NCBI GenBank assembly: GCA_964404855.1
Contig: CAYOLO010000001.1
Span: 222,894-286,893, forward strand
From: an uncultured Gammaproteobacteria bacterium
Lineage (GTDB): Bacteria; Patescibacteriota; Microgenomatia; CAYQLK01
Length of the DNA stretch: 64,000 bases
Direction of reading: 5' to 3'
The notes beneath the pieces are model-generated. The model ran no database searches, was not told the DNA's origin, and saw nothing but the letters and a program-made list of their open reading frames with translations. Positions 5,975-64,000 of the stretch are shown in pieces. Every line of letters begins with the position of its first letter. Position 1 is the stretch's first letter. The position numbers were made by a program, and so were the translations under genes.

Positions 5975-6039
5975 GTTATAGCCGTAAATTGTGCTAAAAT
6001 TCTTAGAATCGTTTTTGGGATACGGAATCAATTGTCTTT

Positions 6040-6650: not shown

Positions 6651-6804
6651 AGGTATTTTTGGGCTTAGCACCCCTAGCTTCTTTAGTTTTGTTTGAGATG
6701 GAGAAATTTCATCACAGACAAACTTAGCGAAGCGTCTGTTTTTTTGCAGAGCTAGCCTCCTCACAATTACTTTTTAAGGCTTGTGGTTTGGTTGTTGTGT
6801 GAGT

Positions 6805-6851
6805 GGTGGGTGGTAGGATTAATTTCTTGCCCCCACCTCTTTTTTTGTTTT
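6805..6851 (+). terminator. Rho-independent terminator candidate
   Basis: The stem GGTGGG (6805-6810) pairs with CCCACC (6832-6837), followed by TCTTTTTTTGTTTT. It lies between the GC-rich island and the convergent rimK-like gene. Confidence 0.4.
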
Positions 6852-9058: not shown

Positions 9059-9202
9059 TTTAGTTTAAAATTTTATTTCACTAAATTACTTTCGCTAAGA
9101 GCTAGTTAAGGTAACTTTAAAGCGCCCACATTATAATACTAAATATAGCTGTGACAAGTGTGTAGAAAATGTGCGGTTTGTAATTAAATAAAACAAATAA
9201 AT

Positions 9203-32685: not shown

Positions 32686-32704
32686 TAAAAGTAAGGAAAA
32701 AATG

Positions 32705-32778
32705 TGGGCGCGCTTGGACTTGAACCAAGGACATCGACCTTATAAGAGTCGCGCTCTAACCAACTGAGCTACGCGCCC
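32705..32778 (-). tRNA. tRNA-Ile, anticodon UAU
   Basis: The reverse complement GGGCGCGTAGCTCAGTTGGTTAGAGCGCGACTCTTATAAGGTCGATGTCCTTGGTTCAAGTCCAAGCGCGCCCA folds as a cloverleaf with a 7-bp acceptor and a 5-bp T-stem. The anticodon loop is CTTATAA. CCA is not encoded. Confidence 0.8.
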
Positions 32779-34550: not shown

Positions 34551-34622
34551 AGCGGTGTGGTGTACCGGGAACACGCCAGGCTCATAATCTGGAGATACGT
34601 AGTTCGACTCTACGCGCCGCAA
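34551..34622 (+). tRNA. tRNA with CAU anticodon (Met/Ile2-lysidine class), with an A1·A72 acceptor mismatch
   Basis: The cloverleaf has acceptor AGCGGTG / CGCCGCA, D-stem GTGT/ACAC, anticodon stem CCAGG/TCTGG with loop CTCATAA, and T-arm CGTAG-TTCGACT-CTACG. U8, A14, U33 and A58 are present. Confidence 0.6.
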
Positions 34623-34635
34623 CAAGTAAGGAAAA

Positions 34636-34891: not shown

Positions 34892-34892
34892 G

Positions 34893-34965
34893 TGGCGACG
34901 GTTGGGCTCGAACCAACGACCGCGGGTTTATGAATCCCGTGCTCTACCAACTGAGCTACGCCGCC
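34893..34965 (-). tRNA. tRNA with CAU anticodon (elongator Met or Ile2 class; G1-C72 paired)
   Basis: The reverse complement GGCGGCGTAGCTCAGTTGGTAGAGCACGGGATTCATAAACCCGCGGTCGTTGGTTCGAGCCCAACCGTCGCCA forms a cloverleaf with T-stem GTTGG/CCAAC and anticodon loop TTCATAA. Confidence 0.75.
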
Positions 34966-43675: not shown

Positions 43676-44740
43676 ATGATTCAATATCAGCCGAAATTTA
43701 CGATTAATAATCAGATTCTTACTAATATCGCCAATATTGTGGCGGCTAAAGAATTTATTGAAGATGCACCACTTATTCCTGCATGGGAAGCTAAGTTTAG
43801 GCGTGAGGCTATGGAGCGAACTGTTCATCATGGAACGCATTTGGAAGGCAATAAGTTGAATATGGAACAGGCCAAAGAAGTGCTCGATGGAAGGCAGATT
43901 TTGGCAAAACAGGATGATATTCAAGACATTATTAACTATCGGGAGGTTCTTAGTTATATCGATAGTGTGGCTAAAAAGGAAGGAAAATTGACTGAGGAAG
44001 TATTACTTAAAATTCATAGTTTAACGGTTGATAAGTTGTTGCCTGACGACCAAAAAGGGAAGTATCGTACTTTGCAGGTTTATGTGACGAACAGTCGAAC
44101 TGGAGAGGTGTCTTTTACACCACCAAAACCTGAAGAGGTGGCTGGTGAAATTAGATATTTTTTGGATTGGCTTAATTCAAAGGAATCGGAAAATATTCAT
44201 CCGACTCTAAAAGCCGGTGTGGTTCACTATAATTTGGCCAGAATTCATCCGTTTGTTGATGGTAATGGGAGAACTTCTAGGGCGTGTGCAACATTAGTTT
44301 TGTTCTTGTCTGGCTATGATATTAAAAAGTTTTTTGCGTTGGAAGAGTATTACGATATGGATGCAGCTAGTTACTACCAAGCTTTACAGGAAACAAGTAA
44401 TCAGATAGTTGTGAAAGAATCTGAGCGTGATTTGACTGGGTTTTTGGAATATTTTACGAAAGGTCTGGCGGTAGAGCTTATGCGTGTACGAGAAAGAGTT
44501 CAGCATCTCTCTAGTGATTTGAGGCTCAAAAAACGTGTGGGACAGTTGGCTCTGACTGAGAGACAGGCAAAGATTGTGGAATATATTCAATCGTATGGAA
44601 AAATTACAAACAGAGAGTGGAGATCTTTGTTGCCTGACTATTCTGACGATACGGTTTTGAGGGATTTGAAGGATTTGATTAAGAAAAAAATCATTAAGAA
44701 AAAAGGAATGACAAAGTCGGCTGCTTACGTGATGAAATAA
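43676..44740 (+). CDS. Fic-family protein (AMPylation fold) with C-terminal winged-helix domain
   Basis: It has the canonical Fic motif 'HPFVDGNGRTSRA' and a C-terminal HTH-like region. Confidence 0.85.
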   Translation: MIQYQPKFTINNQILTNIANIVAAKEFIEDAPLIPAWEAKFRREAMERTVHHGTHLEGNKLNMEQAKEVLDGRQILAKQDDIQDIINYREVLSYIDSVAKKEGKLTEEVLLKIHSLTVDKLLPDDQKGKYRTLQVYVTNSRTGEVSFTPPKPEEVAGEIRYFLDWLNSKESENIHPTLKAGVVHYNLARIHPFVDGNGRTSRACATLVLFLSGYDIKKFFALEEYYDMDAASYYQALQETSNQIVVKESERDLTGFLEYFTKGLAVELMRVRERVQHLSSDLRLKKRVGQLALTERQAKIVEYIQSYGKITNREWRSLLPDYSDDTVLRDLKDLIKKKIIKKKGMTKSAAYVMK

Positions 44741-45582: not shown

Positions 45583-47367
45583 GTGAAATTTAGTGAATTG
45601 GCAGCAAGTTTTAATGAAATAGACATGACGGCTTCTCGAAACGAGATGACGGCAATGTTGGCGAACTTGTTTAAAAAGGCAACCCCAGAAGAACTGGAAA
45701 AAATTACGTATTTATCGCTTGGTAGACTTGCGCCTTTGTATGAGCCAATTGAGTTTGGAATGGCGGACAAGTCGGTGGTTATGGCTTTGTCACGCGCTTT
45801 TGATATTAACCAAGCAGAACTTACAAAAGATCTTAAAAGTTTGGGGGATGTGGGAGAGTTGGCGAGAAAGGTTGCAAAAAATGACAATTTTAATGAGAGT
45901 GTGACGGAAGTTTTTGCGAAGCTGTATCAACTTGCTATGGAGCATGGGGCTGGATCGGTTGAGCGTAAAAGTATTATTTTGGCGGACTTATTAAGAAATG
46001 CTGATGAGATATCAGCAAAATATTTGGCAAAAATTCCAACTGGCAAGTTACGGCTTGGGTTTTCGGACATGACAATACTTGATGCTTTGTCTGTGATGGA
46101 GGTTGGAGACAAATCGATAAAAAAGACTTTAGAAAATTTTTATAATTTGGGTCCAGATTTGGGAAGAATTTCAAAAATATTTAAACAAAAAGGGCTGAAA
46201 GGATTGTCTGGAGATTTAATCAAAGTGGGAACTCCGGTTTTGATGGCAAGGTGTGAAAGGTTAAATGATGCAAAAGAAATTTTGGAAAAGTCTGGAGGAA
46301 AAGTTGCTTTGGAGCCCAAATATGATGGTTTTCGGTTGCAGGTTCATTTGGATAGAAAAGGCGGGCTTAAAACCAGAGATAAGGATGGGGAAATAATAAG
46401 TGCCAAGGTTAAGCTTTTTACGCGTAATTTGGAAGATGTGACTTACATGTACCCTGATATTGTTGAGGGAACACTAAAGGAGGTTAAGGCAGATAGGGCG
46501 ATATTTGAAGGTGAGGCTCTAGCATATGAGGAATCGACGGGAGAGTTTAGACCTTTTCAAGAGACGGTACAGAGAAAGCGTAAGCATGGAATTGAGGCAA
46601 AAGTATTAGAAATACCGCTAAGGCTTTTTGTGTTTGAATTTTTGTATTCAGATGGGGTGAGTTTAATTGATGAGCCTTATGAGAAAAGACGAGAAACTAT
46701 GAGAAAGAGTTTTAATCAGGGAGAGATTGTGGTTTTGTCTGAAGAGGTTGTAGCTACGACAGAAAAGGAAATAGAGGATTATTTTGTTCGAGAGATTGAG
46801 CGTGGTTTGGAGGGAATTGTTGCAAAGAAACTAGATGGAGTTTATCAGGCAGGAGCTAGAGGCTGGAACTGGATTAAGTATAAGAGGGGATTTTCTGGTA
46901 AGAATTTAACAGACACCATTGATTGTGTTGTGCTTGGTTATGATTACGGAAGCGGAAAAAGGGCAAAATTTGGAATTGGGGATTTTTTGATTGGTGTTTA
47001 TGACGAAGAGAATGATTGTTTTACAACAATTGCAAAAGTAGGGACTGGTTTAACTGATGAGGAGTGGGTGAATATTCGTGAGTCTCTAGACAAAATAAAA
47101 ACGGACGGAATACCTAAGAATGTTGTGGTTAAAAAATTAGCAGAGGTTGACGTTTGGGCTGATCCTCAAATTGTGGTTGTGATTAGGGCTGACGAAATAA
47201 CTAAATCGCCAATGCATACTACGGCAGAAAAAGACGGGTTAGGATTAGCTCTTAGGTTTCCTAGGCTAATTGAGTTCGGTAGAAAAGATAAAAAACCAAC
47301 CGACGCAACCTCTGTAAAGGAGATTATTTCGATGTACAATGGACAGAAGAAACAAAAGTCTACATGA
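45583..47367 (+). CDS. ATP-dependent DNA ligase (archaeal/eukaryotic Lig1-like architecture)
   Basis: It has the motif I adenylation lysine 'KYDGFRLQVH', an N-terminal DNA-binding domain and a C-terminal OB domain. At 594 aa it is Lig1-sized. Confidence 0.85.
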   Translation: MKFSELAASFNEIDMTASRNEMTAMLANLFKKATPEELEKITYLSLGRLAPLYEPIEFGMADKSVVMALSRAFDINQAELTKDLKSLGDVGELARKVAKNDNFNESVTEVFAKLYQLAMEHGAGSVERKSIILADLLRNADEISAKYLAKIPTGKLRLGFSDMTILDALSVMEVGDKSIKKTLENFYNLGPDLGRISKIFKQKGLKGLSGDLIKVGTPVLMARCERLNDAKEILEKSGGKVALEPKYDGFRLQVHLDRKGGLKTRDKDGEIISAKVKLFTRNLEDVTYMYPDIVEGTLKEVKADRAIFEGEALAYEESTGEFRPFQETVQRKRKHGIEAKVLEIPLRLFVFEFLYSDGVSLIDEPYEKRRETMRKSFNQGEIVVLSEEVVATTEKEIEDYFVREIERGLEGIVAKKLDGVYQAGARGWNWIKYKRGFSGKNLTDTIDCVVLGYDYGSGKRAKFGIGDFLIGVYDEENDCFTTIAKVGTGLTDEEWVNIRESLDKIKTDGIPKNVVVKKLAEVDVWADPQIVVVIRADEITKSPMHTTAEKDGLGLALRFPRLIEFGRKDKKPTDATSVKEIISMYNGQKKQKST

Positions 47368-51638: not shown

Positions 51639-54600
51639 GTGTTGTTTTATTATTTGGGGCAGTATATGGCTGCCTCAAAAAATGATTATCCAGTATATAG
51701 ATTGACGCTTAGTCGCAAGAGTAAGTTTGGCGGGGCGTTAAAGAAATTGGTCGTTTTGAATGTTTTGTCTTTGTTAATTTTTTCTTCACTTTTTGCCCCA
51801 CTTATACAATTTAATATTTTGAACTCTAGACCATTAGATGGGCTGTTTGAAGCTATGGCGGCCGAGCAAAGTTTTGACGATGAGTCTCCACAGACTGATA
51901 AAGAAATCGTTATTATCAGAGAGGTTTGTGGAATATCAGGTTCGGTTGAGGTGACTTTTGCGTGGAAAGAAATTGATAACGCTTCGAAATACAGTTTAGA
52001 GATTTCGAGAATGGCTGAATTTGACCCTGCATCGACATTAACAGCAGTAACTTCGTCACTGGAACACACAGTAACATTGGAGGCAGATGTAAGGTTTAGA
52101 GTTAGAGTGGTTGGCGAAGGTCAAAATGGCGAGACAAAATCGTCACTGGCTGCTACCTATTACAACACTGATTGTGCACAAGAAAAAGAGACAAATAGAT
52201 TGGCAGCTTATTCCAAAACGTTAAGTGAAAATATTGGAGCGGGTGGTAGTGGTGCAGTCGCTGGGGAAAAACTGATTGCTCAGTCTAGCTCAATGACTTG
52301 TACTATGAATCCCGATAATGTGTTTAGTATTAATGTAGGACCGTCGACGGTAGTTACTAATTTTAGTGTCAATATTAATAATCTTGATCAGGGTGAATTA
52401 TATGTTGGCGCAACTTATGTGGATGGTACGGTAAGGTTTTTTAAGCAACAGCCAAACGCGGAGCTAACTTTGTCGGGCAATGCCAGAATTCGTGCTGGAG
52501 CAGATCAGGGATATTATAATTCCTCGTCTCAGGGTGGAAATAAGACAATGTATTTTTCTATCTATACAGATGGGGGGCATGTAGCCCAACAGAATGCATA
52601 TACGCTTAGCGCTTTTTATGTTCAGACAGTTGTTAATGGTCAGCAAGTAGGAAGCAATAAACAGTGTAATGGTGCTTCAAGCGGTTTGGGTGGACTAGTA
52701 ATTCATACTGTAGCCAGTGCTACGCCAACACCAACACCAACAAGGACGCCAACACCAACAAGAACACCTACGCCTACGCCAACAACAACGGCTGCAACAC
52801 CTACACCAACAAGAACACCTACGCCTACGCCAACAACAACGGCTGCAACACCTACACCAACAACTCCAGTTAGTGCGATGACTTGTAAAATGAATCCTGA
52901 TACGACATTTAATTTGACAGTTGGATCATCTCCGGTTGAGCAGAATTTTAATATTACTGTTTCAAATCTTGAAAAAGGAGAGTTGTATGTTGGGGCTACA
53001 TATGTTGATGGGACTGTAAGATTTTTCAAACAACAGCCGAATGCAGAATTGTCGTTATCTGGCAACGCTAGGATTAAATCGTCATCTGATCAAGGATTTT
53101 ATAACTCTCCAAGTGCTGGAGGAAGTAAGACTTTTAACTTTTCAATCTCATTAGACTCTAATCATGTTGCACAGAGTAGGGCATATGAACTTAGCGCTTT
53201 TTATGTTCAGACAGTTGTTAATGGTCAGCAAGTAGGAAGCAATAAACAGTGTAATGGTGCTTCAAGCGGTTTGGGTGGAATGGTGATTAATACCCTTGCT
53301 GGACCAACTCCGACTCCGACACCAACACCGCCTTCAGTTGGTACTTTTTCGATTAGTTATTCTGGGGTGTCTTCAGTTGAATCATTAGATCGTGGTCAAA
53401 ACAAAACATTTAGTGTTATTTATAAAGATACAGGTGGTTGGGGAGGGAAACCTGTAGAGATTTATGTTAACGATAGTGCTTTGACGAGTAATAATACAGC
53501 TTCTTTGGACAACGGAAATGTCTATTTGTCTTTTGTTCAAAAAACGATTTATCCAACGACAACTCAACAGTCTTTGTCTTTTACATTGAGCGCGAACGAG
53601 TATGCGGCCGCAAAGGACTTTGTTTTTAAGTTACAGGGTTTATATGTCGCGTCTTCTCTAGTTCTACCGTCATCATCGTCAACTGGTTTTGCGGTATCGA
53701 ATCAGTTTACCGCTCGAGTTGCTGCCCCTGTTAGTCCAACACCTACTGCGACCAGCGTTCAAAACACGCCTACTCCTACAACTACGGTTCAAAACACGCC
53801 TACTCCTACTACCTTTGTTTCAAATATGGCCTGTGTGATGAATCCGGCTAGTGGGGTATTTAATATTCAGGCAAGTTCGACTCAACAGACTCTTTCGCCG
53901 TTTACAATAACGGCTAATAATTTGGACAGAGGAGAATTGTACATTGGAGTCAACTATGAGGAAGCAGGAGTGTACAAGTTTTTTAATTATGAACCGAACA
54001 ACACAATTATCTTATCGGATCAGCCTAATTTTTCTGCAACGATAAGATCGGAAGATACGGGTTACTACAACTCTCCAGGAGGTGGTTCAAAAACATTTAG
54101 GTTTAATATTATTCTGAGTGCAAATCATCCAGGTGCAACTCCAGCTTATCGTTTACCGGAAATCTATATTCAAACTGTAGATCGAAGCAGTGGAACAGCT
54201 CAGCAGATTGGTAGCAACAAGAACTGTACGACTAATGGTATTACCGTAAACACAATCGGTGCACCAACCCCAACAGCGACTAATGCACCGACTTCGACGC
54301 CGACTCCAACAGTCACTCCGTCAGCTAATATTGCCTGTTCGTTAAGTGTTACGGCTACTAATTTTGTTCGTGGAACCGCGGCAAGTAGTTTGGGAAATAT
54401 AGTGATGAGTGGAGGAGTAAGTGGAACAGCATATTATATTGGCTTAATTAGTGGAGTAAATAACACTCTTTTTGCAAATCAACCTGGAAATAAAATTGAA
54501 ATTGGAGATAAAGATTTTAATCCATTAAAAGTTTATCCACAGGCAACTACATTCTCTGGTTCTAGCGGTCAGACTGCAGTGTTTATTGATCCGTCAAATA

Positions 54601-57600
54601 CGGTTTTAAGTGGAAGTTACAGTTTTGAACTGGGCTTGTTTACACAATCAGCTGTTTTGGTTAAGAATTGTGGAAATCCTGTTACTCTGACTGTTTCGGA
54701 TGGGGGATCTAATCCGACACCACTAGGCAAAGTAACACTTGAAACATGTAGTAATGGCAAGGTTAACGCTACTTTGGACTGGTCGCTTTGGTCCTCGACA
54801 ATTGGATCAACTCCAACAAAATATATTTGGGAATATAATTATGGGGGATTAATTGGGACAGGAGAGAGTGGGTATACAACCAGTGAAAGTTTTTCAAGAA
54901 CAGCAAATATAACAGGGCTTACTTCTCAATCAGAAATTGCTTGGAGAGCTAAGGCGTATAACGGTACTACTTTGTTAGCAACCTCTCCGGTTTTTACTCA
55001 CACAATAATATATTGTGAGCCACCAGTAGCTACAGGAACGACTGGTGTAGGTGATTCAATAATGTTGGGAGCAAAGAGTACTTTGGAAGCAAATATTCCA
55101 GGAATTGATATTGATGCGGTTGTGAGTCGAGGGGCAGCAGCAGGAATTTCAGTATTACAAGCAAAACTGGATTCTGGAACCCTTGGAGCCAAAGTAATAG
55201 TTGGATTAGGAACTAATAATGGAATTACTGATTCTCAAATTGATCAAATTGCTTCAATAGTTGCGTCTCCGAGAAAACTTTTCTTGATTACTGTAAAAGT
55301 TCCTCAAGGCCATGAATCTTCATCAAACAACACGATTATAAATGGAGCCAGTAGGCATGGGGCTACATTAATTGATTGGTATTCGAATTCGATTAATCAT
55401 CCCGAATATTTTGCGTCTGACGGAATACATTTAACTGGCCAAGGTATTAGTGCTTATTCAAACCTAGTTTTGGCTGCATTAGGCTCAGCTCCAGTGACTA
55501 CACCACCAGGCGAGTTTACAGTTTTGAATAGAGTGTTTAATTGTGTTGATGCGAATAATATAAATATTGTTTTCACTTGGTCTCAGTCATCAGGAGCTGT
55601 CAGATATGATTTGTATTGGGAGAGGACTCCAAATGGTACGGCCTCGTTTGATATTAGAGACGAACAATATCTTGCTGGCTCAAGTACAACTCTTAGCCAT
55701 TCCAACTCAACATTTGCTCCGAACCAGAGACTTTGGTATGACGTAAAAGCCGTAAGTGCCAGCGGTGGAAGTGTTTGGTCCAAGAATGGTACATATTATG
55801 TCGACTTGCCAACTTGTTCATCTCCAACCGCAACGCCGACAAATACTCCAGTACCAACTGCAACAGCTACGCCAACGAAAACCCCAACAAATGTACCAAC
55901 CGCAACGCCGACAAATACTCCAGTACCAACGGCTACCCCAACTCCACAAATTGCTATGTCTTGCTCGATTAATCCAACATTGCTTGCATTAAAAACTGGC
56001 CAAATATTGCCATTTACAGTGACGGTAAATAATCTTGATCAAGGAGAATTGTATGTAGGTGCTTACTATTTTGACGATCCAAATGGACACTTCTTTAAGC
56101 TTCAAAGCGGAATAGTTACACTTAGTGACCAAGCCAGAATTGTTTCGGCTGATGCAAGTGCAGGGTATTATCAATCAGCTTCAGGTGGCGGATCGAGACA
56201 GTTTGCGTTTAAGATTGAGGCTGATGCTAATGGCCCAGTTGGTCAATATACTTTAAGAGAATTTTTTATTCAGACAGTTAGGAATGGACAGTTTATTCGA
56301 AATACAAATTGTGTAACTGGAGGAACTCAATTAGTTATTAATGTTAGTGCAGGCATAGTGCCAACAAATACTCCTACAAAAACTCCAACGCCAACCGCAA
56401 CGCCTCAACCTGGAACGCCCACAAATACTCCTGCAGTTAATACTCCTACACCAACCATAACGAGTACGCCTGGAAACTTTAAGCCAGTAATTAGTGATAC
56501 TTCTGCAAAATGTAGTTCAATTAGCAACGCAGAAATCTTAGTTAATTGGGGAGCTGTTAGTGGTATCGAGGGCTTTGGAATTGAAATGACGACTGCAGCG
56601 TTTAGCCCATCTGACTTTAGTTACTTTAGGTACCCATCAGATTGGAGCAATTTAACAAGTCTATATCAACAGACAAGAATTAGTGATTATGGTTTTATTT
56701 CGAATACAAATTATCAGATTAGGATAACGGCAATTAAATCTGATGGAACTCAATATCAATCCGATGTTCAAACTGTACAAACTGGTGACTGTGCGAAATT
56801 ATCAGCTGATGTCGGTGGCCTGAATGGTTCGGCGTCTAACAAGCTAGTGCCAATGACAATTGGTGGAGATGTTGTACCAAACGCCTTCGTGGCAGTTGCT
56901 TTGTATAACAACGGTTGGGAGAGGCCTGTTCAAATTGAGGTTAAGGGAGTTGGCGGGGTTTATCAGCCAATAACTGCTTCTGGTCAGGAAGTACAAATTG
57001 GTGCAGGAGTATTTGTTAAGGCTAAAGCGTCTGGAACACTTACTTCGCCGTTTGCAAAAAACGCACCTTCATATCGAGAGATATCTTATCGAACAGTGTA
57101 CTTTGATGCTTATGCAACGGCAGATGCGCAGGTTGGTAGCGATCCGATTTTTATGATTAGAATTAAAGATGGGGCTGTTTATTATGATGGTGCTAGTTAC
57201 GGGGCTGCAATTCCGATTGCGAAAAAAGCTACATATAATGGAACAAAAGAGTCGGGGTTTGAGTTTATGAAGGTATTGACTGGTGGAGCTAACGGAGGAG
57301 GGTGTAGAGGGTCGAGTTGTTACGAGGTGAATTACAATCCTCAAAGGGCAAAATTACTGGTAGGAATGTGGGGAACGGAATCTGGTTGGAGTACTGTGGG
57401 TACCAGTGGGTGTGACCAGTTTGGATGTCACTCAGAATCAATGTACTCATTCGGTGCAACCGATTGGGACAGATGGGGTGGCGAGACAGGGTTTTATGAT
57501 AGTAGTTTGCCGAATAGTGGAAGGGGTAATTTTGAGACAGAAACACGGGCTGTTGATAGGATGTTTACTCAATCGTTTAACGACCCTTCGTCAGGATCGT

Positions 57601-57755
57601 TCCGAATGTATGCGCCAACATATTTTGGCCCATGGAATTTAGGGGATGATAATCCAACATATGGTGGAAACTGGTGCACGCATCCATCAAATGGATATAG
57701 AGCTGCTTATAATACGGGACTACTTAACGACTTAGGGCCTAACTGTTACGATTAA
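51639..57755 (+). CDS. Giant (2038 aa) secreted/surface multidomain protein with Pro/Thr-rich linkers, repeated Cys-containing modules, FN3-like modules and an SGNH (GDSL) hydrolase domain
   Basis: It has an N-terminal TM/signal. PT linkers recur at about 52720-52870, 53290-53330, 53740-53820, 54250-54310, 55820-55940 and 56360-56470. Four paralogous modules of about 145 aa begin at about 52290, 52880, 53825 and 55960. The SGNH motifs are GDSIM, GLGTNNG and DGIHLT, at about 55040-55480. The C-terminal roughly 420 aa form a Cys/Trp/Gly-rich domain. Confidence 0.7.
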   Translation: MLFYYLGQYMAASKNDYPVYRLTLSRKSKFGGALKKLVVLNVLSLLIFSSLFAPLIQFNILNSRPLDGLFEAMAAEQSFDDESPQTDKEIVIIREVCGISGSVEVTFAWKEIDNASKYSLEISRMAEFDPASTLTAVTSSLEHTVTLEADVRFRVRVVGEGQNGETKSSLAATYYNTDCAQEKETNRLAAYSKTLSENIGAGGSGAVAGEKLIAQSSSMTCTMNPDNVFSINVGPSTVVTNFSVNINNLDQGELYVGATYVDGTVRFFKQQPNAELTLSGNARIRAGADQGYYNSSSQGGNKTMYFSIYTDGGHVAQQNAYTLSAFYVQTVVNGQQVGSNKQCNGASSGLGGLVIHTVASATPTPTPTRTPTPTRTPTPTPTTTAATPTPTRTPTPTPTTTAATPTPTTPVSAMTCKMNPDTTFNLTVGSSPVEQNFNITVSNLEKGELYVGATYVDGTVRFFKQQPNAELSLSGNARIKSSSDQGFYNSPSAGGSKTFNFSISLDSNHVAQSRAYELSAFYVQTVVNGQQVGSNKQCNGASSGLGGMVINTLAGPTPTPTPTPPSVGTFSISYSGVSSVESLDRGQNKTFSVIYKDTGGWGGKPVEIYVNDSALTSNNTASLDNGNVYLSFVQKTIYPTTTQQSLSFTLSANEYAAAKDFVFKLQGLYVASSLVLPSSSSTGFAVSNQFTARVAAPVSPTPTATSVQNTPTPTTTVQNTPTPTTFVSNMACVMNPASGVFNIQASSTQQTLSPFTITANNLDRGELYIGVNYEEAGVYKFFNYEPNNTIILSDQPNFSATIRSEDTGYYNSPGGGSKTFRFNIILSANHPGATPAYRLPEIYIQTVDRSSGTAQQIGSNKNCTTNGITVNTIGAPTPTATNAPTSTPTPTVTPSANIACSLSVTATNFVRGTAASSLGNIVMSGGVSGTAYYIGLISGVNNTLFANQPGNKIEIGDKDFNPLKVYPQATTFSGSSGQTAVFIDPSNTVLSGSYSFELGLFTQSAVLVKNCGNPVTLTVSDGGSNPTPLGKVTLETCSNGKVNATLDWSLWSSTIGSTPTKYIWEYNYGGLIGTGESGYTTSESFSRTANITGLTSQSEIAWRAKAYNGTTLLATSPVFTHTIIYCEPPVATGTTGVGDSIMLGAKSTLEANIPGIDIDAVVSRGAAAGISVLQAKLDSGTLGAKVIVGLGTNNGITDSQIDQIASIVASPRKLFLITVKVPQGHESSSNNTIINGASRHGATLIDWYSNSINHPEYFASDGIHLTGQGISAYSNLVLAALGSAPVTTPPGEFTVLNRVFNCVDANNINIVFTWSQSSGAVRYDLYWERTPNGTASFDIRDEQYLAGSSTTLSHSNSTFAPNQRLWYDVKAVSASGGSVWSKNGTYYVDLPTCSSPTATPTNTPVPTATATPTKTPTNVPTATPTNTPVPTATPTPQIAMSCSINPTLLALKTGQILPFTVTVNNLDQGELYVGAYYFDDPNGHFFKLQSGIVTLSDQARIVSADASAGYYQSASGGGSRQFAFKIEADANGPVGQYTLREFFIQTVRNGQFIRNTNCVTGGTQLVINVSAGIVPTNTPTKTPTPTATPQPGTPTNTPAVNTPTPTITSTPGNFKPVISDTSAKCSSISNAEILVNWGAVSGIEGFGIEMTTAAFSPSDFSYFRYPSDWSNLTSLYQQTRISDYGFISNTNYQIRITAIKSDGTQYQSDVQTVQTGDCAKLSADVGGLNGSASNKLVPMTIGGDVVPNAFVAVALYNNGWERPVQIEVKGVGGVYQPITASGQEVQIGAGVFVKAKASGTLTSPFAKNAPSYREISYRTVYFDAYATADAQVGSDPIFMIRIKDGAVYYDGASYGAAIPIAKKATYNGTKESGFEFMKVLTGGANGGGCRGSSCYEVNYNPQRAKLLVGMWGTESGWSTVGTSGCDQFGCHSESMYSFGATDWDRWGGETGFYDSSLPNSGRGNFETETRAVDRMFTQSFNDPSSGSFRMYAPTYFGPWNLGDDNPTYGGNWCTHPSNGYRAAYNTGLLNDLGPNCYD
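52285..53325 (+). repeat. Two tandem near-identical copies, about 450 bp each, of a protein module inside the giant gene. A third copy is at about 53823-54260 and a fourth at about 55957-56350.
   Basis: Long identical nucleotide runs are shared, for example 'agcgctttttatgttcagacagttgttaatggtcagcaagtaggaagcaataaacagtgtaatggtgcttcaagcggtttgggtgga' at about 52607-52696 and about 53195-53284. Confidence 0.7.
52758..52859 (+). repeat. Perfect 2 x 51-nt tandem repeat encoding the PT linker (RTPTPTPTTTAATPTPT x2)
   Basis: The unit 'acaagaacacctacgcctacgccaacaacaacggctgcaacacctacacca' occurs at 52758 and again at 52809. Confidence 0.75.
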
Positions 57756-57758
57756 AAT

Positions 57759-58253
57759 ATGGAAAATAACTTGGATATGCCAAATAGTACTAATAATAAA
57801 CGACTTACAAAAAAACACTTGTTGATATTTGGTTTAGTAACACTTGTGATTGGTGTTGGTGTGCATATGTTTACCAGAAGTAATAAGCCTAATTACGAAC
57901 AAGCCGATTTGGTTAAAACCGAACTTTATATTGATCCTAAAGTAGAAGATTTGGCTAGTTTTGTTTCAGAATTGCCTTATGAAACCGAAGGTTATATGGT
58001 TGAATATTATCCAAACTCTGGATTTTATTTCATTACATTACGAGGTCAAACTGATGCGGAAGTAAATAATAATAAGAATAAGGCGAATGATTGGATTGTT
58101 TCTCATACGGCTTTTTCAGAAAACAATAGTTTTTGTGGGCAAAAATACCAAATAGTATTACCACCTAAGGGTGATAATGTTGAGGTTAATAACTTGGAAA
58201 GTATGTTGACAATGCCGGGCTGTAATTACGCAAAACCTGAGAATACAAATTAA
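57759..58253 (+). CDS. Small secreted/membrane-anchored hypothetical protein
   Basis: A 164-aa ORF with an N-terminal TM, starting 4 nt after the giant gene's stop. Confidence 0.4.
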   Translation: MENNLDMPNSTNNKRLTKKHLLIFGLVTLVIGVGVHMFTRSNKPNYEQADLVKTELYIDPKVEDLASFVSELPYETEGYMVEYYPNSGFYFITLRGQTDAEVNNNKNKANDWIVSHTAFSENNSFCGQKYQIVLPPKGDNVEVNNLESMLTMPGCNYAKPENTN

Positions 58254-58268
58254 ACGAAAATAGAATTT

Positions 58269-60056
58269 TTAGTTGGTTAGACTCTTTCTAAGAGTATCGA
58301 AATAGTTTGTGTATGGATTGTTTTCTTGCGGGGCAGGGGTTGGGCTTTGAATGGAAAATCTAGACCCTTCGGCCCATGTTTCAAAATCAGCGTGTTGAAT
58401 TAAGGCAAGAATGTTGGTAGTAAGAAGTTTTTGATCTTGTTCGGATAGCGAGAGATATAGGCTATTAATTTCTGAGTGTCCAGAAATTAATCCAACAATA
58501 AAAGCTGAATCGCAATAATATTCAACAAAAAACCTTACATAATTACTTTCAGATTGATAATTGTGATTGGCAATTGAGTTTTTGCCTATTTTTGAAGCTA
58601 AATTATCCATTGTTTCCGGATTATCGATAAGCATTTTTACGAAAATTGCATAAAAATCAGAAGATTCGGCTAGTTTTTGAAGTTGGGGTAGTTTGGCATC
58701 AACAAATTCTTTGGATGACTGATATTGATTAGGTTGGAGTTCTAAAATTTGAGCAACTTCACCCAATGTGAATTTTTCTTCAGTTTGACTGTTTGTGGCA
58801 AAAGTGTGAGGCTCAATTTTGTAGAGCTTTTCTTGACTATTTGCTTCGGTGTTGGTGGTAAAGGTCTCAAATGCATAGTTAGACATTCCTGCAATATATG
58901 GATCTAGTTCCGAATATTTCTTAAACAACTGGTCCAGAGACCTGAACTGACTGCCGAAATCTGGATCTGTTAAGGCTTTTTCTTGAAGAGTGGCTAATTT
59001 AACTAGCTCTTCGGGTGAAAGTGAAGCAATAATCGATTTGTTTTGTGACAAGTTCGTCGCATGTGCCCATTCATGACGCAAACTTTGAGGGTTATTAGGA
59101 TTAACAACTAATAGATAACTATTACCGAGATCTTGGAAATAGTTAGGTTCAAAATTGCCGGCTTTTCTAATTGTGAATTTGCCACTAAGGGGAGCAAGTT
59201 CATCGACTAATGATTGTAAAGAATTAATTTCTGTTTCGGATAGATTTTCGTAAGTTATTTCATTGGACTTCTCGTTCTCTGCGTTGTTAAGGCGTAAGTA
59301 GTCGGACAAGGATATATTTAAGCCAAAATAAGGGCCATCTGGATTGAATACATGGTTGGTGTTGAATTGTATCTGCTCTAAGGTATTTTTCAGATCGACA
59401 ACATTAAAGTTTATAGTTAGTGTGTCGAGTTGTGGTTTAACAATAGTGTCAAGTATTTCTTGGTTTTGAAGAATAAAAATTTGTGATTCAGCTTCGAAAT
59501 TTGGAAGGGAAGGGTATTTTAATTTGGTTAGATGTAGAAGCTCTGGGGTTTTGTTATCTGAACTTAGATTTGAAGAGTATGAAGCAAGTAGTTTAGCTTG
59601 AATTGATTCTATTTTTTTAAGGTTCTCTACTTGGTTTATGTATTCACCTTTTTCTTTTTCTGTAAGATTAGAAGATGAAATTTGGCTTATTAGATTTTCG
59701 TAGGTTCCTTGTTCTGGAGTAGGGGTGACTTCAGGAGTTTGAGTCGGTGATATTTCAGGGGTAGATGTAGCAGTTGGTATCTCGATGGTTACCGTTGAGC
59801 CATCAGGTGTGGTGGCGGTAAATACTGGTTTAGGTGGTGTTTCGATTGTTAGGGTGGCTTCAGGACTTATTGTGGGGTATGAATTTGGATTGTCGGATTC
59901 ACAGGCTTGAGCTAGGCCGGCAATAATTGTGCTACCAACGGCAGCTCCAGCTGTGCCAAGAATAAACTGCTGACGTCTTGTGAGGCGAGATTTGTTTTTG
60001 GCTAGGTTTTTGGGATTAAATTCTTGAGGTTCGTACGGTTCGCGTTCGGTAGGCAT
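58269..60056 (-). CDS. Secreted HExxH zinc metalloprotease candidate with a Tat-like signal and PT-rich linker
   Basis: The N-terminus 'TRRQQFILGTAGAAVG' is a twin-arginine-like signal. A Pro/Thr linker follows. 'HEWAH' is an HExxH motif in the C-terminal domain. Confidence 0.5.
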   Translation of the reverse strand: MPTEREPYEPQEFNPKNLAKNKSRLTRRQQFILGTAGAAVGSTIIAGLAQACESDNPNSYPTISPEATLTIETPPKPVFTATTPDGSTVTIEIPTATSTPEISPTQTPEVTPTPEQGTYENLISQISSSNLTEKEKGEYINQVENLKKIESIQAKLLASYSSNLSSDNKTPELLHLTKLKYPSLPNFEAESQIFILQNQEILDTIVKPQLDTLTINFNVVDLKNTLEQIQFNTNHVFNPDGPYFGLNISLSDYLRLNNAENEKSNEITYENLSETEINSLQSLVDELAPLSGKFTIRKAGNFEPNYFQDLGNSYLLVVNPNNPQSLRHEWAHATNLSQNKSIIASLSPEELVKLATLQEKALTDPDFGSQFRSLDQLFKKYSELDPYIAGMSNYAFETFTTNTEANSQEKLYKIEPHTFATNSQTEEKFTLGEVAQILELQPNQYQSSKEFVDAKLPQLQKLAESSDFYAIFVKMLIDNPETMDNLASKIGKNSIANHNYQSESNYVRFFVEYYCDSAFIVGLISGHSEINSLYLSLSEQDQKLLTTNILALIQHADFETWAEGSRFSIQSPTPAPQENNPYTNYFDTLRKSLTN

Positions 60057-60106
60057 AACGTAATTATATTATTTTTTGACTTGGCTCGAAGAGGAAACCC
60101 CTTTTT

Positions 60107-60574
60107 TTAGGCTGCTTTTTCTATGGTGCTGTCTGAGGGTGTGCTAGCTGGAAGGTTGGGATTTTGTATTTGATCCTTTTTGGCTTCAAAGCTTGTGATG
60201 TTTTCTGGGACTGGTGATGATAACGGTGCTTGTTTTTTGGAAAAAAGTCCCAAGATTAACGCCTTGAGGCCAGTTTTTGGTTTAGGTTCTTGAGTATTTA
60301 CTACTGCTGTTTCTGTGGCAGAGGGAAGAGTTGAACTGATTTCGTGTCTAATATTTGGGTTTGGATTAACATTTTCTTCAATAGGTGTCGAAGGCATAGA
60401 GGCGAGGTCTTTGCGAATCAATGCGATGGCTTCTTGGTCAATATCCACCTCATTGGTTGCAGGAGTAACTGGAGTTGGGGTTTCATTGTAAGTAGTAGTT
60501 GCAGGTGTGATTGGAGATTCTGCTGGTTGTGGTGTAGGCGTGGTGGAAGGTGTTTCTAAGGTATTTGTACTCAT
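60107..60574 (-). CDS. Pro/Thr-rich low-complexity protein, hypothetical
   Basis: A 155-aa ORF, co-directional with the metalloprotease gene. Confidence 0.35.
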   Translation of the reverse strand: MSTNTLETPSTTPTPQPAESPITPATTTYNETPTPVTPATNEVDIDQEAIALIRKDLASMPSTPIEENVNPNPNIRHEISSTLPSATETAVVNTQEPKPKTGLKALILGLFSKKQAPLSSPVPENITSFEAKKDQIQNPNLPASTPSDSTIEKAA

Positions 60575-60653
60575 TGTTTATTAGTATAACAAGATTAGTT
60601 TTTGAAGTAAAAAGTTTAATGTTTTTGTTTGGTTTTTCAATTAGAATAAAGGC

Positions 60654-61799
60654 ATGAGTTTTACGCGTTTTGCTATTTTGTTTTTGTTTGCAATATTTTT
60701 GGCAATTTTATTGAATGCACTTTTTTTTCGTAAATCTGAGAATGGGTGTAGCAAGTGTGATGTGGTGCTTGTAACACTAGATAGTTGGAGATATGAAGAT
60801 TTTGATAAATTAAAAATGCCAAAGGGCGGTGTTTTTTTTAAAAATGCGATAGTGAACTCAACATGGACACTACCAAGCTATGCATCTATTTATACAAGTG
60901 ATTATCCAGCCAAACAGGCGGTTTGGCTTCCTTCTGATAAATTGAACCCAGATAGTGAAAATTTTGTATCAAAATTAAAGAGTTTGGGATATAAGACAAA
61001 TGCATATTCAGTTGGTCCGTTTTTTCAAAAAGAGTGGGGTTTTGAATCTGGATTTGATAAATTTCTAAATATTTCTAATACTGATGAGCTGAAAAAAGCT
61101 TGGACAACAGATCTGAATGCAAATAGCGCAAATAGTCAGCCGGATTTTTATTGGATTAGATTAGGAAGTAGGGAGTTGGTTTTGGATTATGAAAATAATA
61201 TCGATAAGACTTTGACAGGTGTTCAGGATTTGTTAAGCCAAATTGTAGATGATAAAAATACTGAGATTGTAGTTGTCGGGGCGTTTGGGAAATTGTCCGA
61301 AAAGCCTAGCTTAGATTCTATTAAGGTGCCAATGTTTTTTTATAGCCCAAAAACTTCGAATATAAATACTAAGGATGTTTTTGAGGTCAAAGATGTTAGT
61401 AAATTGATTTTGGGTGAAGCAGAGTTTTTGAAAAATAGAAATTCCAAAAATTCTTTAGTCGCTTTGACTTCGGTTACTGAGAGTGAAAAGTTGGTCAGAG
61501 AGATTTATGAGAAGGGTAAAGAGTTAGAGGTTAAGCCAGTGGTAAGAAATAAAGAGTGGAATCAGCCTTATTTTTCCTCATCAATCTCAAATAATTGGCA
61601 TTTAATAAAGGATTTAAGTGGAGAATATTTTTTATACGATTTGCAGTCTGATCCAGATGAGAAAAATAACCTATTTTCTAGTTGGAATTCATTGGCTGGA
61701 GAAAAGAGAGCTCACGCAATTGATGTAATACGCTCAATAGGTGGGGATGTGCCAGAGTTATGCGGAATATATTGTGGTTCAGATGAATTTTTTAAGTAA
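60654..61799 (+). CDS. Sulfatase-fold (alkaline phosphatase superfamily, PF00884-like) protein, paralog 1, likely degenerate
   Basis: It has an N-terminal TM, then 'CDVVLVTLDSWRYEDF' and 'WTLPSYASIY' aligning with paralogs 2 and 3. It lacks a clear C-terminal DHGE motif. Confidence 0.5.
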   Translation: MSFTRFAILFLFAIFLAILLNALFFRKSENGCSKCDVVLVTLDSWRYEDFDKLKMPKGGVFFKNAIVNSTWTLPSYASIYTSDYPAKQAVWLPSDKLNPDSENFVSKLKSLGYKTNAYSVGPFFQKEWGFESGFDKFLNISNTDELKKAWTTDLNANSANSQPDFYWIRLGSRELVLDYENNIDKTLTGVQDLLSQIVDDKNTEIVVVGAFGKLSEKPSLDSIKVPMFFYSPKTSNINTKDVFEVKDVSKLILGEAEFLKNRNSKNSLVALTSVTESEKLVREIYEKGKELEVKPVVRNKEWNQPYFSSSISNNWHLIKDLSGEYFLYDLQSDPDEKNNLFSSWNSLAGEKRAHAIDVIRSIGGDVPELCGIYCGSDEFFK

Positions 61800-63138
61800 T
61801 AAAAGAGTAACTATATTGTTTGCTGTTATTTTGATTGTCGTGGTTTGTTTGGTTATTAAAAACGATAATCTGTTTACGCATAATACTAGTCTGAGATGCG
61901 GTGGTCGTCAGTGTAATGTGATCTTGATTGTTTCTGATACATTATCAGCCCAACATATGAGTGTATATGGGTATGAGAGAGAGACTACACCTTTTATAAA
62001 GAGTTATTTTGAAAATAATGGTGTAATTTTTGATTCAGCATCAAGTACAGCTTCATGGACAATGCCGTCTTTTGCTTCGATGTTTAGATCTCAGTACCCT
62101 TCACAGATTTTAATGAAGGATTTGGCATCAAAAAAAGACCCAAATACTTTTGTTGATGTTTTGAGAATGCAGGGGGTGGAGATAAAAGGGGCAGTAGATA
62201 CGGGCCAGTTAATAAAAGAAAGTGTAGCGAATGTTTTTGAACCTAAAGAAGTTTTGGGTGGTAGTGGAGAGGCTAGGTTTATATCCGCTGGTCAGTGGCT
62301 AACGGAGCGAAATAATAAAAAGCCTTTTTTTATGATGATTCATGATTGGACAGTCCATGATCCATATACACCACAAAAGCAGTACCAGCATCTTTTTGGG
62401 GAGCCAGATGTATATGAAGGTGATGTTTCGCATGAAGAGATTGAGGGTGTGAAAGAAAATAAATTTCAATCAAATAGCCAAAAAGAAAAATTTGTCAGAA
62501 GATACGATCAGGAAGTTAAAGAATTTGATGATTTAATAAAAAAGTTTGTGGGCTCTTTAAGTCAGGATATACTTGATAGTTCAATAATAATTATTACTAG
62601 TGATCATGGAGAGGGTTTTGATGAACACGGATTTTTTTATCATGGAGCACACGTCTATGAGGAGTTTGTAAAGATTCCAATGCTTATTAAATTTCCCGAT
62701 AATGCATTTGCTGGAAAAAGAGTATCGGCTCCAATATCTTTAATTGATATGGGGCCAACAGTTCTTAATATCTTTGATAAAAAGGTTCCAGAAAGTTATT
62801 TGGGGGTTAACTTTTTTGATTTGATTGGTGATGAAAATCGATATAATGAAAGGAGTATTATTTCTGAGTTGGGAACTTTTGATTTGAGCTTAGGTGGAGA
62901 AGTAACATCGTTTGATCAGCTAGATAGTAGTGTTTTGGATAAGTTCATTTTTAATGATCGAGCGCAGTTAGCGGTACGCAAAAAGAATTGGAAATTAATT
63001 AAAAGCCTTAAAGGTATTGAATTGTTTAATCTTGAAAGTGATAGCTTAGAAAAAAATAACTTGATTCAGAAATGGGAGAGTTATCCTGAGGGGGATAAGA
63101 AAATTATAAAAGAATTACTTAAAGCTACAAAAAATTAA
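61741..63138 (+). CDS. Sulfatase-fold (alkaline phosphatase superfamily) membrane-anchored protein, paralog 2. The likely start is at the internal ATG at 61783.
   Basis: 'CNVILIVSDTLSAQHMS' is a metal-binding Asp region. 'ASWTMPSFASMF' is a Thr nucleophile region as in LtaS/EptA. 'ITSDHGEGFDEHG' is present. Confidence 0.7.
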   Translation: MGMCQSYAEYIVVQMNFLSNKRVTILFAVILIVVVCLVIKNDNLFTHNTSLRCGGRQCNVILIVSDTLSAQHMSVYGYERETTPFIKSYFENNGVIFDSASSTASWTMPSFASMFRSQYPSQILMKDLASKKDPNTFVDVLRMQGVEIKGAVDTGQLIKESVANVFEPKEVLGGSGEARFISAGQWLTERNNKKPFFMMIHDWTVHDPYTPQKQYQHLFGEPDVYEGDVSHEEIEGVKENKFQSNSQKEKFVRRYDQEVKEFDDLIKKFVGSLSQDILDSSIIIITSDHGEGFDEHGFFYHGAHVYEEFVKIPMLIKFPDNAFAGKRVSAPISLIDMGPTVLNIFDKKVPESYLGVNFFDLIGDENRYNERSIISELGTFDLSLGGEVTSFDQLDSSVLDKFIFNDRAQLAVRKKNWKLIKSLKGIELFNLESDSLEKNNLIQKWESYPEGDKKIIKELLKATKN

Positions 63139-63140
63139 TT

Positions 63141-64000
63141 GTGACTATTAAACGCATATCGTTAACTATTGTTTTTTTGATTGTGTTGGTAATTGGTGTA
63201 GTCTTTGTTAATTCCACCGGAAGTAAAAATATTAAAACCCATAAAGAGCTGTGCGGTAGTAAGAAATGCAATGTGGTGCTTATATATGTTGACACGTTAT
63301 CAGCCCAACATTTAAGTGGAAATGGATATTCTAGGCAAACATCTCCATTTATTGATGAGTTTTTTCTAAATCAAGGATTAGTATTTAAAAACGCGTTCAG
63401 TAATGGCACTTGGACTGTACCGTCTTTTGCTTCAATGTTTAAATCAAAACTTCCTTCTGAAATTACGGTAAATGAAATGATAAATAGTAATGATAATGGG
63501 GATTTTATCGATTACTTAAGAGAAGCTGGGGTAGAAGTAAAAGCAGTTCTTAGGAATCAGCCCACAACTGTTGACCAAGCTGTTGATTCAAGATTTAAAC
63601 AGGAAGAAATTATTCAGGCTTCAAGAGGCCATGCATTTGAGAAATCGACTGAATGGATCAGTAAAAGAGCAAGTTCAGAAAACGAAAGGCCGTTTTTTTT
63701 GATGGTGCATAGCTGGGATGTCCACCATCCTTTTGATCCACCTGAACCTTATCGAAATTTGTTTTCAGATAATCCAGACTACCAAGGTCCAATGGGTTTA
63801 GAGGAATTTCAGCCGCTTAGGAAAGTGCCAATTGAACAGTGGCAGGATAAGTTGGACAGCGTAAAGCTACAGTATGATCAAGGTATTAGAAAAACAGATG
63901 ACTATTTGAAAAATTTTATAGAGAGCTTTCCTCGAGAACTTGCTAAGGATACAGTTTTTATATTAACTGCTGATCATGGTGAGGGTTTTGCGCAGCACGA
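63141..64000 (+). CDS. Sulfatase-fold protein, paralog 3 (GTG start; 3' end beyond the window)
   Basis: 'CNVVLIYVDTLSAQHLS', 'GTWTVPSFASMF' and 'LTADHGEGFAQH' are colinear with paralog 2. Confidence 0.65.
   Translation, partial: MTIKRISLTIVFLIVLVIGVVFVNSTGSKNIKTHKELCGSKKCNVVLIYVDTLSAQHLSGNGYSRQTSPFIDEFFLNQGLVFKNAFSNGTWTVPSFASMFKSKLPSEITVNEMINSNDNGDFIDYLREAGVEVKAVLRNQPTTVDQAVDSRFKQEEIIQASRGHAFEKSTEWISKRASSENERPFFLMVHSWDVHHPFDPPEPYRNLFSDNPDYQGPMGLEEFQPLRKVPIEQWQDKLDSVKLQYDQGIRKTDDYLKNFIESFPRELAKDTVFILTADHGEGFAQH

Follow-up and report, generated by a model that had tools for sequence, protein, structure and literature searches.

Candidate threonine-type phosphate-ester enzymes on a sulfatase-like scaffold, and an adjacent giant-protein module with a zincin-like protein, in DNA resembling the candidate phyla radiation

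The described enzymes closest to the proteins considered here are the S1 sulfatases and phosphonate monoester hydrolases (PMH), represented by choline-sulfatase (7oz8), BT4656 (5g2v), SpAS (4upi) and AslA; the transferases EptA and MCR-1; and the LtaS/OpgB(MdoB)/GacH group. We compare them with three tandem paralogs, c1, c2 and c3, encoded at the end of a 64-kb stretch of contig CAYOLO010000001.1 (the window), within a surveyed region of six genes (57759-64000). With the S1 sulfatases and PMH, the paralogs share the whole scaffold, including an SGSH_C-type subdomain, together with the first Asp ligand, the Asp-His pair and the His of a 'vHdPY' motif; they differ in having a Thr nucleophile, in replacing the motif Arg by Phe (His in most homologues) and the sulfate-binding Lys by His, in lacking GKWH, and in being anchored to the membrane by an uncleaved N-terminal helix. 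With EptA/MCR-1, the catalytic inventory agrees residue for residue (an acid, Thr, a GSHGP-type His, DHGE and, 12-13 residues further on, a His) and the catalytic domain is likewise predicted to be extracytoplasmic; however, the paralogs lack the domain of five transmembrane (TM) helices, carry an extra C-terminal subdomain, and belong to an organism of the candidate phyla radiation (CPR) that has no lipid A to modify. CPR bacteria are monoderm (PMC9166423). The LtaS/OpgB/GacH group offers the weakest of the three comparisons: shared are the PF00884 domain, Thr as nucleophile and, as a proposal for the paralogs, extracytoplasmic action on envelope polymers, whereas the nucleophile motif differs and the multi-TM domain is absent from the paralogs.

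The three paralogs are arranged as follows, the window closing inside c3:

60654..61799, plus strand: c1, a 381-residue single-pass PF00884 paralog, catalytically dead
61783..63138, plus strand, ATG start: c2, a 451-residue PF00884 enzyme with one membrane pass, whose Thr/metal site is complete; its first 17 nt overlap the end of c1
63141..64000, plus strand, GTG start: c3, the third paralog, starting 2 nt after the c2 stop; the window ends directly after DHGEGFAQH

A longer open reading frame (ORF) for c2, opening with GTG at 61741, also exists and is unlikely to mark the true start. The preliminary description of this DNA had placed all three genes, as membrane-anchored, in the alkaline-phosphatase superfamily (PF00884), and this is borne out. 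Against a Pfam gathering cut-off of 25 bits, c2 scores 133.8 bits (profile positions 2-299 of 301), c3 100.5 bits (cut by the window end) and c1 34.1 bits (positions 6-142 only); Pfam further finds SGSH_C, the C-terminal subdomain of sulfatases, in c2. The further placement of the paralogs with LtaS/EptA-type enzymes did not hold, as their nearest relatives by profile are S1 sulfatases and PMH and they are without a multi-TM lipid-binding domain. A family profile (A2, 61 homologues) searched against the PDB returned only S1 sulfatases and PMH as top matches (E 6e-69 to 1e-39). In hhalign comparisons with E. coli K-12 proteins, the same profile aligned best with AslA (E 1e-24, 358 aligned columns), followed by EptA (E 1.4e-17, probability 98.9, 271 columns) and OpgB (E 3.4e-8, 16% identity, 238 columns). 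Because of the PDB ranking and the hhalign order of AslA, EptA and OpgB, we regard the scaffold, as judged from these profile alignments, as sulfatase-like and not LtaS/EptA-like. Among NCBIfam models, the best for c2 were arylsulfatase PRK13759 (88.8 bits, cut-off 481) and choline-sulfatase (81.9 bits, cut-off 433), with EptA next; the EptA, MCR and CptA models gave 20-58 bits (best 58.5) against cut-offs of 400-1250, and models for LtaS or OpgB were absent from the NCBIfam matches of the paralogs. Each paralog has a single hydrophobic segment at residues 6-27 (Kyte-Doolittle hydropathy, KD, 2.8) with no obvious cleavage site, and the predicted topology of c1-c3 is that of type-II anchored proteins with the domain outside.

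The active site can be read position by position in c2, where it comprises D52 (61936), T93 (62059-62061), H192 (62356) and D274-H275-G-E277...H287 (62602-62643). In c3, the Thr lies at 63414-63416 and DHGEGF at 63972-63989; its full-length orthologues of 451-453 residues on related contigs (L001:11311-12666, 88% identity; L002; L003) carry the full catalytic set. Across the 61 homologues, D52, H192, D274, H275, G276, E277 and H287 are invariant and T93 is at least 90% conserved. The first motif reads CDVVLVTLDSW in c1, CNVILIVSDTL in c2 and CNVVLIYVDTL in c3, and the nucleophile motif WTLPSYAS, WTMPSFAS and WTVPSFAS, respectively. The Thr nucleophile proposed from the sequence is supported, since in the alignments the Thr of WTxPS (T93 in c2) falls exactly on the formylglycine Ser/Cys position and on the catalytic Thr of EptA, with F97 on the motif Arg. 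The maturation motif C/S-x-P/A-x-R is replaced by T-M-P-S-F in c2, T-V-P-S-F in c3 and T-L-P-S-Y in c1; the Lys/His pair of the sulfatase GKWH has no equivalent in the aligned block, and the distal Lys that binds sulfate falls next to the invariant His287 in the alignment. Given that Thr replaces Cys/Ser, Phe replaces Arg and GKWH is absent, c1-c3 cannot be formylglycine sulfatases. The alignment with EptA instead pairs D52 with Glu, T93 with the Thr of GTAT, H192 with the His of GSHGP, DHGE with DHGE and H287 with the His of YLHG. The metal ligands are intact in c2 and c3. DHGEGF, earlier taken for a C-terminal motif of all three copies, is present in c2 and c3 but begins at residue 274 of 451, in mid-protein, and c1 has GAFGKL instead.

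Read from sequence, c2 and c3 carry the residue set of Thr-nucleophile phosphoryl-transfer enzymes, and most probably they work outside the membrane as phospho-Thr metalloenzymes on phosphate esters. The metal would be held by D52, T93, D274 and H275; T93 would attack a phosphate ester to give a covalent phospho-Thr intermediate, with H192, E277 and H287 assisting as in EptA/MCR-1. For the overall reaction, hydrolysis of phosphoesters from the envelope or the host, by a phosphodiesterase or phosphatase, would come first and transfer to an envelope acceptor a close second. Hydrolysis is favoured because c2 and c3 have a single TM helix and keep the sulfatase C-terminal subdomain, and for the single-TM, SGSH_C-bearing forms in CPR we lean slightly towards a hydrolase over a transferase.

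The first paralog has taken a different course. The PF00884 match of c1 covers only the N-terminal half, and five of the seven catalytic residues are missing; among its orthologues, which are 47-86% identical to one another, the first Asp is the only one consistently kept. Lost are H58, H192 (within a 47-residue deletion), D274/H275 (replaced by A-F, A-S or V-V) and H287, while the position of E277 holds Lys in the window, Arg in L003 and Glu in L001 and L002. The Thr is kept in the window but is Ala in L002 and Pro in L003, and the c1-like gene of L018 has no Pfam match at all. At unsaturated dS, the ratio of nonsynonymous to synonymous substitution rates (dN/dS) is 0.11-0.16 for c1, similar to the 0.06-0.12 of c2/c3. 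We rejected a pseudogene, as the ORF is intact in at least five genomes at that dN/dS. Since catalytic residues are lost and yet dN/dS is low, c1 is a maintained pseudoenzyme under purifying selection; the earlier impression of a degenerate first copy thus stands for its catalytic residues, although the gene is selected and not decaying. As a conserved non-catalytic paralog, c1 could serve as a binding or regulatory partner. The usual comparison for non-catalytic paralogs of the alkaline-phosphatase fold is YejM/PbgA. Like them, c1 keeps the N-terminal half of the fold and a membrane anchor and is conserved, here in an operon with active paralogs; unlike YejM, it retains neither the Asp-His pair nor either helper His. 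YejM is reported to retain a metal site (PMC7576196).

Two cysteine features accompany the paralogs. A Cys pair stands just after the anchor helix in all of them (CSKC in c1, ~60740-60760; CGGRQC in c2, ~61885-61910; CGSKKC in c3, ~63240-63265), and the c1 orthologues end in a strictly conserved 'DVPE(L/A)CGIYCGS(D/N/H)EFFK' (~61740-61799). These residues could form disulfides or, on the dead paralog, a metal site.

The paralogs are old. c2 and c3 are 36% identical, and c1 is ~20% identical to either. In a neighbour-joining tree, c2, c3 and a further type of 467/469 residues group together, each with orthologues in related genomes; because each type has its own orthologues, the duplications are lineage-specific but older than the divergence of these genomes. 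A tandem triplication had been proposed, and three paralogs there are, but the copies are ancient and some relatives have four. Array copy number is three or four: the fourth type (467-469 residues, 44% identical to c2) occurs at L001:8529-9938 and L007:8001-9404 and is absent from the window, L002 and L003, and at L006:9404-10311 the next copy is broken into ORFs of 111 and 207 residues, with different genes downstream.

Upstream of the array lies a second group of genes, whose layout is as follows:

51639..57755, plus strand: giant surface protein of 2038 residues, rich in Pro/Thr (PT) linkers; outside the surveyed region, a conserved partner of A and B
57759..58253, plus strand: protein A, 164 residues, with one N-terminal TM helix and two conserved Cys; it starts 4 nt past the giant-gene stop
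58269..60056, minus strand: protein B, 595 residues, comprising a conserved tail at the N-terminus, the RR motif, a helix of mild hydrophobicity, the PT linker and a helical domain of ~480 residues with a zincin-like core
59904..59978, minus strand: B residues 27-51, the twin-arginine 'RRQQ' followed by the h-region FILGTAGAAVGSTIIAGLAQA, assigned by motif and hydropathy
59712..59891, minus strand: B residues 56-115, Pro/Thr-rich linker, 48% P+T, predicted local distance difference test (pLDDT) <50
59061..59075, minus strand: HEWAH of B (H328, E329, H332), putative zinc-binding/catalytic motif, assigned by conservation and a modelled helix
60107..60574, minus strand: protein C, 155 residues, PT-rich and predicted disordered, on the same strand as B and upstream of it

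The ORFs and motifs quoted in the preliminary description were all found in the sequence, with small errors only. B and C had been called a convergent pair; they are in fact co-directional, and jointly they converge with the giant gene and A and diverge from c1. The conserved gene A, which starts at the first coordinate given for the region, had gone unmentioned.

All of this had been read as one functional surface/secretome cluster, which the gene neighbourhoods of relatives do not support. The same order (PGI, giant, A, B and C on the minus strand, c1, then two or three active paralogs) recurs on six related contigs (L001-L003, L006/L007 and L018), with mnmA following the array in all except L006. 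B and the array adjoin only where the housekeeping flanks are also syntenic, so this conservation of order is uninformative on functional linkage. More telling are four distant neighbourhoods of B homologues:

L014 (2562-7948): P0148, 28% identical to B; small neighbour of 137 residues, A-like (E 2e-6); large neighbour of at least 1104 residues, 33% identical to the giant over 208 residues
L016 (92-4918): P0147, 28% identical to B; small neighbour of 160 residues, A-like (E 2.5e-33); large neighbour of at least 828 residues, its C-terminus 36% identical to the giant over 436 residues (E 5e-64)
L012 (76-3149): P0146, 29% identical to B; A-like small neighbour (E 2e-8) downstream of an inserted toxin-antitoxin pair; large neighbour not seen
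L017 (2091-6551): P0153, 23% identical to B; small neighbour of 181 residues, not A-like; large neighbour of at least 674 residues, M23-like

The neighbours are convergent with the B homologue in L014, L016 and L017, and on these four short contigs no sulfatase-like gene lies beside it. The A-like small proteins of the triad (137-195 residues) are TM-anchored and have two Cys. Because the triad recurs beside B homologues of ~28% identity, with no sulfatase gene there, the evolutionarily conserved unit is giant + A + B, and the sulfatase-like array is a separate operon, its neighbour by chance in this lineage. To the large counterparts we add that those in L014 and L017 show M23-peptidase-like motifs by eye.

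Protein B belongs to a rare family. A search of 5.8 billion proteins recovered only 13 homologues (at least 53% identity), and an exhaustive profile search over 1.84 billion representatives found 29; no Pfam or NCBIfam family matches B, and a PDB profile search with the family returned no peptidase, only weak matches to Tat (twin-arginine translocation) signals. The HEWAH zinc motif noted earlier proved robust: in 35 family sequences with identities down to 17-29%, E329 never varies, and conservation of H328/H332 is at least 90%. Were there neither catalysis nor metal binding, the retention of HExxH at such distances under a dN/dS of about 0.08 would be difficult to account for. An AlphaFold2 (AF2) model built from 14 close homologues reached pLDDT 53; adding 21 remote homologues gave a usable model (pLDDT 79, predicted template modelling score 0.77) in which residues 114-595 mostly exceed 90. 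There, a four-strand sheet (266-318) runs directly into the HEWAH helix (323-333), the arrangement of zincins. The linker at residues 56-115 is predicted disordered, its P+T content comparing with a background of 9.6%. Foldseek against the PDB gave nothing below E 0.2 for this model; the weak list is crowded with peptidases (M61, M1, M3, astacin, M4 and M48), catalytic zincins (astacin, M32, MtfA, Wss1, PPEP-3 and meprin) also recur among the matches, and the likeness to anthrax-LF, PPEP and astacin-type zincins is modest. With a motif invariant across the family and a modelled zincin-like fold, B is likely a zincin-like hydrolase of an undescribed family, and we infer peptidase activity. It would be a zinc hydrolase, probably a peptidase, acting on or with the giant protein, with an RR-type helix at its N-terminus for export or anchoring and the PT linker keeping it away from the membrane.

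The N-terminus of B is Tat-like at family level, as had been suggested. R27-R28 lie within 'SRLTRRQQFILG' at 59973-59978, followed by the h-region at 59904-59966. The motif T-R-R-Q-Q-F-I-L has one residue more than S/T-R-R-x-F-L-K and is out of register by one, and the window protein has no PF10518 or TIGR01409 match at E<0.1. RR is kept in 11 of the 13 close homologues (RH and RK in the other two), remote members carry the canonical SRREFLK, SRRDFLKK or PRRDILKG, and one of 35 family members matches PF10518. The N-terminus of the family profile weakly resembles the Tat peptides of AioB, NapA, NosZ, FdhA, a laccase and MelC1 (E 0.4-4), and the h-region is weakly hydrophobic (KD over 19 residues, KD19, 1.75 against 2.8 for the Sec-type anchors of c1-c3). 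The N-terminal tail of ~25 residues is conserved, which is unusual for a cleaved signal. We observed further that this cytoplasmic tail (residues 1-26, 59979-60056, 'EREPYEPQEF..NLAKNKS') has a 'PYEPQ/PGEP' core recognisable in remote members (P10 at least 90%); the tail could be a chaperone-binding or retention element. For tatA/tatC, tblastn with E. coli and B. subtilis queries and a TatA motif scan gave only chance matches in the 64-kb window and the fetched loci, a result uninformative on the genome; some Microgenomatia are reported to have TatA and TatC (PMC9166423). Reading B as a lipoprotein ('LAQAC') was rejected, since P0139-P0144 lack the Cys and position -3 does not fit a lipobox.

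Taken together, the region would consist of two separate, adjacent units: Unit 1 (57759-60574; A, B and C), the tail of a surface module with the giant protein, A and the zinc hydrolase B, and, unrelated to it, Unit 2 (60654 to beyond 64000), a c1-c2-c3 operon of Thr-type ectoenzymes acting on phosphate esters. To this explanation as a whole we give somewhat better than an even chance, and several points weigh against it. Synteny among close relatives neither links nor unlinks the two units, and their unlinking depends on four short remote contigs. For B, the candidates for a third zinc ligand are E359, which is Glu in most members and Ala, Asn, Gln or Thr in several remote ones, and E559, which is at least 90% conserved but 227 residues away from HEWAH. 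For c2 and c3, literature searches on the Thr-type subfamily turned up no characterised member, none with a known substrate and nothing in CPR, and the preference for hydrolase over transferase is only a lean. Multi-TM homologues in glycan clusters, moreover, argue for transferase chemistry in the wider family.

That last point bears on the most serious alternative, which we consider possible though unlikely: that the paralogs are LtaS/EptA-like transferases, which would take phosphoglycerol or phosphoethanolamine from a lipid of the membrane and attach it to a polymer of the envelope, with the tandem copies diversifying the modification. In its favour, the pattern of catalytic residues is that of EptA, and the catalytic domain is predicted to be held at the membrane surface. 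Roughly a third of 120 c2-family homologues have 4-8 N-terminal TM helices, and both loci whose context we looked up place such forms among polysaccharide genes: a WTxPS/DHGE homologue at L008:8001-9824 in a surface-glycan cluster with Bac_transf, DegT, methyltransferases and acetyltransferases, and two copies at L010:2388-4466 and 7001-9076 in a cluster with GT2, a PMT-like GT-C and a flippase. A single-TM homologue from Parcubacteria adjoins murD and murC. Because of these glycan-cluster and murD/murC neighbours, an envelope-related role for the Thr-type family is supported, with transferase chemistry plausible for the multi-TM forms. The window proteins, however, have one TM helix where such transferases have a five-TM lipid-binding domain, they fall far under the EptA/MCR/CptA cut-offs, their similarity to OpgB is weak, they retain the SGSH_C subdomain, and no glycan or teichoic-acid genes stand beside the array, which is flanked by B/C and mnmA. 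Phosphoglycerol or phosphoethanolamine as the transferred group, as first proposed, is a guess. A radical-SAM/SPASM gene is also present among the neighbours in the L008 and L010 clusters.

A more ambitious proposal, which we hold to be doubtful, extends the two-unit explanation. B would found an undescribed Tat-targeted zincin family, one that has no Pfam model and numbers ~29 representative clusters out of 1.84 billion proteins, locked convergently to giant PT-linker proteins and the two-Cys protein A across distant CPR-like lineages; it would cut the Pro/Thr-rich linkers of the giant protein, taken to be wall-active, and so control host attachment or attack, and c1 would separately be a regulatory pseudoenzyme partner of c2 and c3. 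The nearest described parallels are the Pro-Pro endopeptidases, anthrax-LF (M34, ATLF-like) and MtfA, from which B differs in having no sequence-level match (Pfam, NCBIfam or PDB profile), in being about three times larger with extra helical domains, and in its RR-type in place of a Sec signal. The genes of the M34 zincins PPEP-1 and PPEP-2 lie right next to those of the surface proteins that are their substrates, in opposite orientation (PMC8610288), an arrangement resembling B and the PT-linker-rich giant gene that is suggestive and provides a lead by analogy.

That the paralogs are true sulfatases is highly improbable: their best profile matches are all S1 sulfatases and Joint Genome Institute (JGI) automatic names imply as much ('arylsulfatase A-like enzyme'), but T-M/V-P-S-F in place of C/S-x-P/A-x-R makes formylglycine impossible, GKWH is absent, the sulfate-binding Lys position is His, and equivalog cut-offs are missed by five-fold or more. 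NF052527, 'manganese-dependent arylsulfatase' (38 bits), was considered as a Thr enzyme and rejected, since it uses Cys61/FGly; the 'manganese arylsulfatase' still uses Cys/FGly (PMC12421950).

As to the other members of Unit 1 and the giant gene, protein A has an anchor of KD19 2.25 at residues 21-39, shows a dN/dS of 0.06-0.09 and matches no Pfam or NCBIfam family; its likeness to the small neighbours of remote B homologues comes from hmmsearch. The giant protein has no Pfam match at E<1e-3, despite repeated modules between its PT linkers; the part resembling the large L016 protein is its C-terminal 420 residues. By eye it carries an SGNH-hydrolase-like 'GVGDSIMLG' block, and the C-terminal domain kept in the L016 protein contains 'GMWGTESGW'. 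Protein C, 29% P+T, is kept as an ORF in L001-L003 (dN/dS 0.19-0.31) and matches no family in Pfam or NCBIfam. It is PT-rich and of low complexity, as noted earlier, but its membership of a secretome is not borne out, since it has no signal peptide or TM segment (maximum KD19 0.60). A promoter and terminator scan gave signal at background level only.

The window is AT-rich and coded almost wholly on the plus strand, and its CPR-typical genes include an archaeal-type ATP-dependent DNA ligase, a bact-PGI_C isomerase, SufB, FtsH and RNase J. Closest to c2 is a 90%-identity cluster that includes a near-identical protein, MBP6979907.1, named Candidatus Curtissbacteria. Gene content and the name of this cluster member indicate an uncultured, tiny-genome, Curtissbacteria-like source within the CPR/Microgenomates. 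The closest public genomes (L001, CAYQLK010000013.1; L002, CAYROP010000021.1; L003, CAYUKQ010000009.1) are titled 'uncultured Gammaproteobacteria bacterium'. Because the gene content is CPR-like and the cluster member bears a Curtissbacteria name, we treat the label on these records as unreliable and probably wrong.

CPR bacteria have a minimal metabolism and are attached to other cells, which makes surface enzymes the site of host interaction and scavenging. In that setting, the analysis corrects a common mis-annotation, as the name 'arylsulfatase A-like' is borne here by proteins that cannot be sulfatases; their combination of a sulfatase scaffold with a phosphoryl-transfer site of the EptA type is useful for studying how nucleophile switches arise in the alkaline-phosphatase superfamily; the conserved dead paralog c1 is flagged; and the tie between giant surface proteins and a small HExxH family without a name yields a concrete, testable protease-substrate hypothesis. 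The genes are uncharacterised members of known superfamilies and not a new kind of system, and current understanding is not overturned.

A few features elsewhere in the window complete the survey. Most 2-kb bins of 1-64000 show a strongly positive GC skew (+0.17 to +0.39), and nearly all long ORFs lie on the plus strand; the skew falls to about 0.03-0.08 in bins 6001-8000 and 52001-56000. Most bacteria read AUA with a lysidine-modified CAT tRNA instead of a tRNA-Ile(TAT); the window encodes a tRNA-Ile with anticodon TAT at 32704-32778 (minus strand) as well as two tRNA-Met(CAT) at 34551-34623 and 34892-34965. Other genes recorded are a type IV secretion system coupling-protein-like ATPase with TraG/VirD4/TrwB domains (30361-32685), a Fic/DOC protein gene (43676-44740) and the ligase gene (45583-47367), which is of the archaeal/eukaryal three-domain ATP-dependent type.

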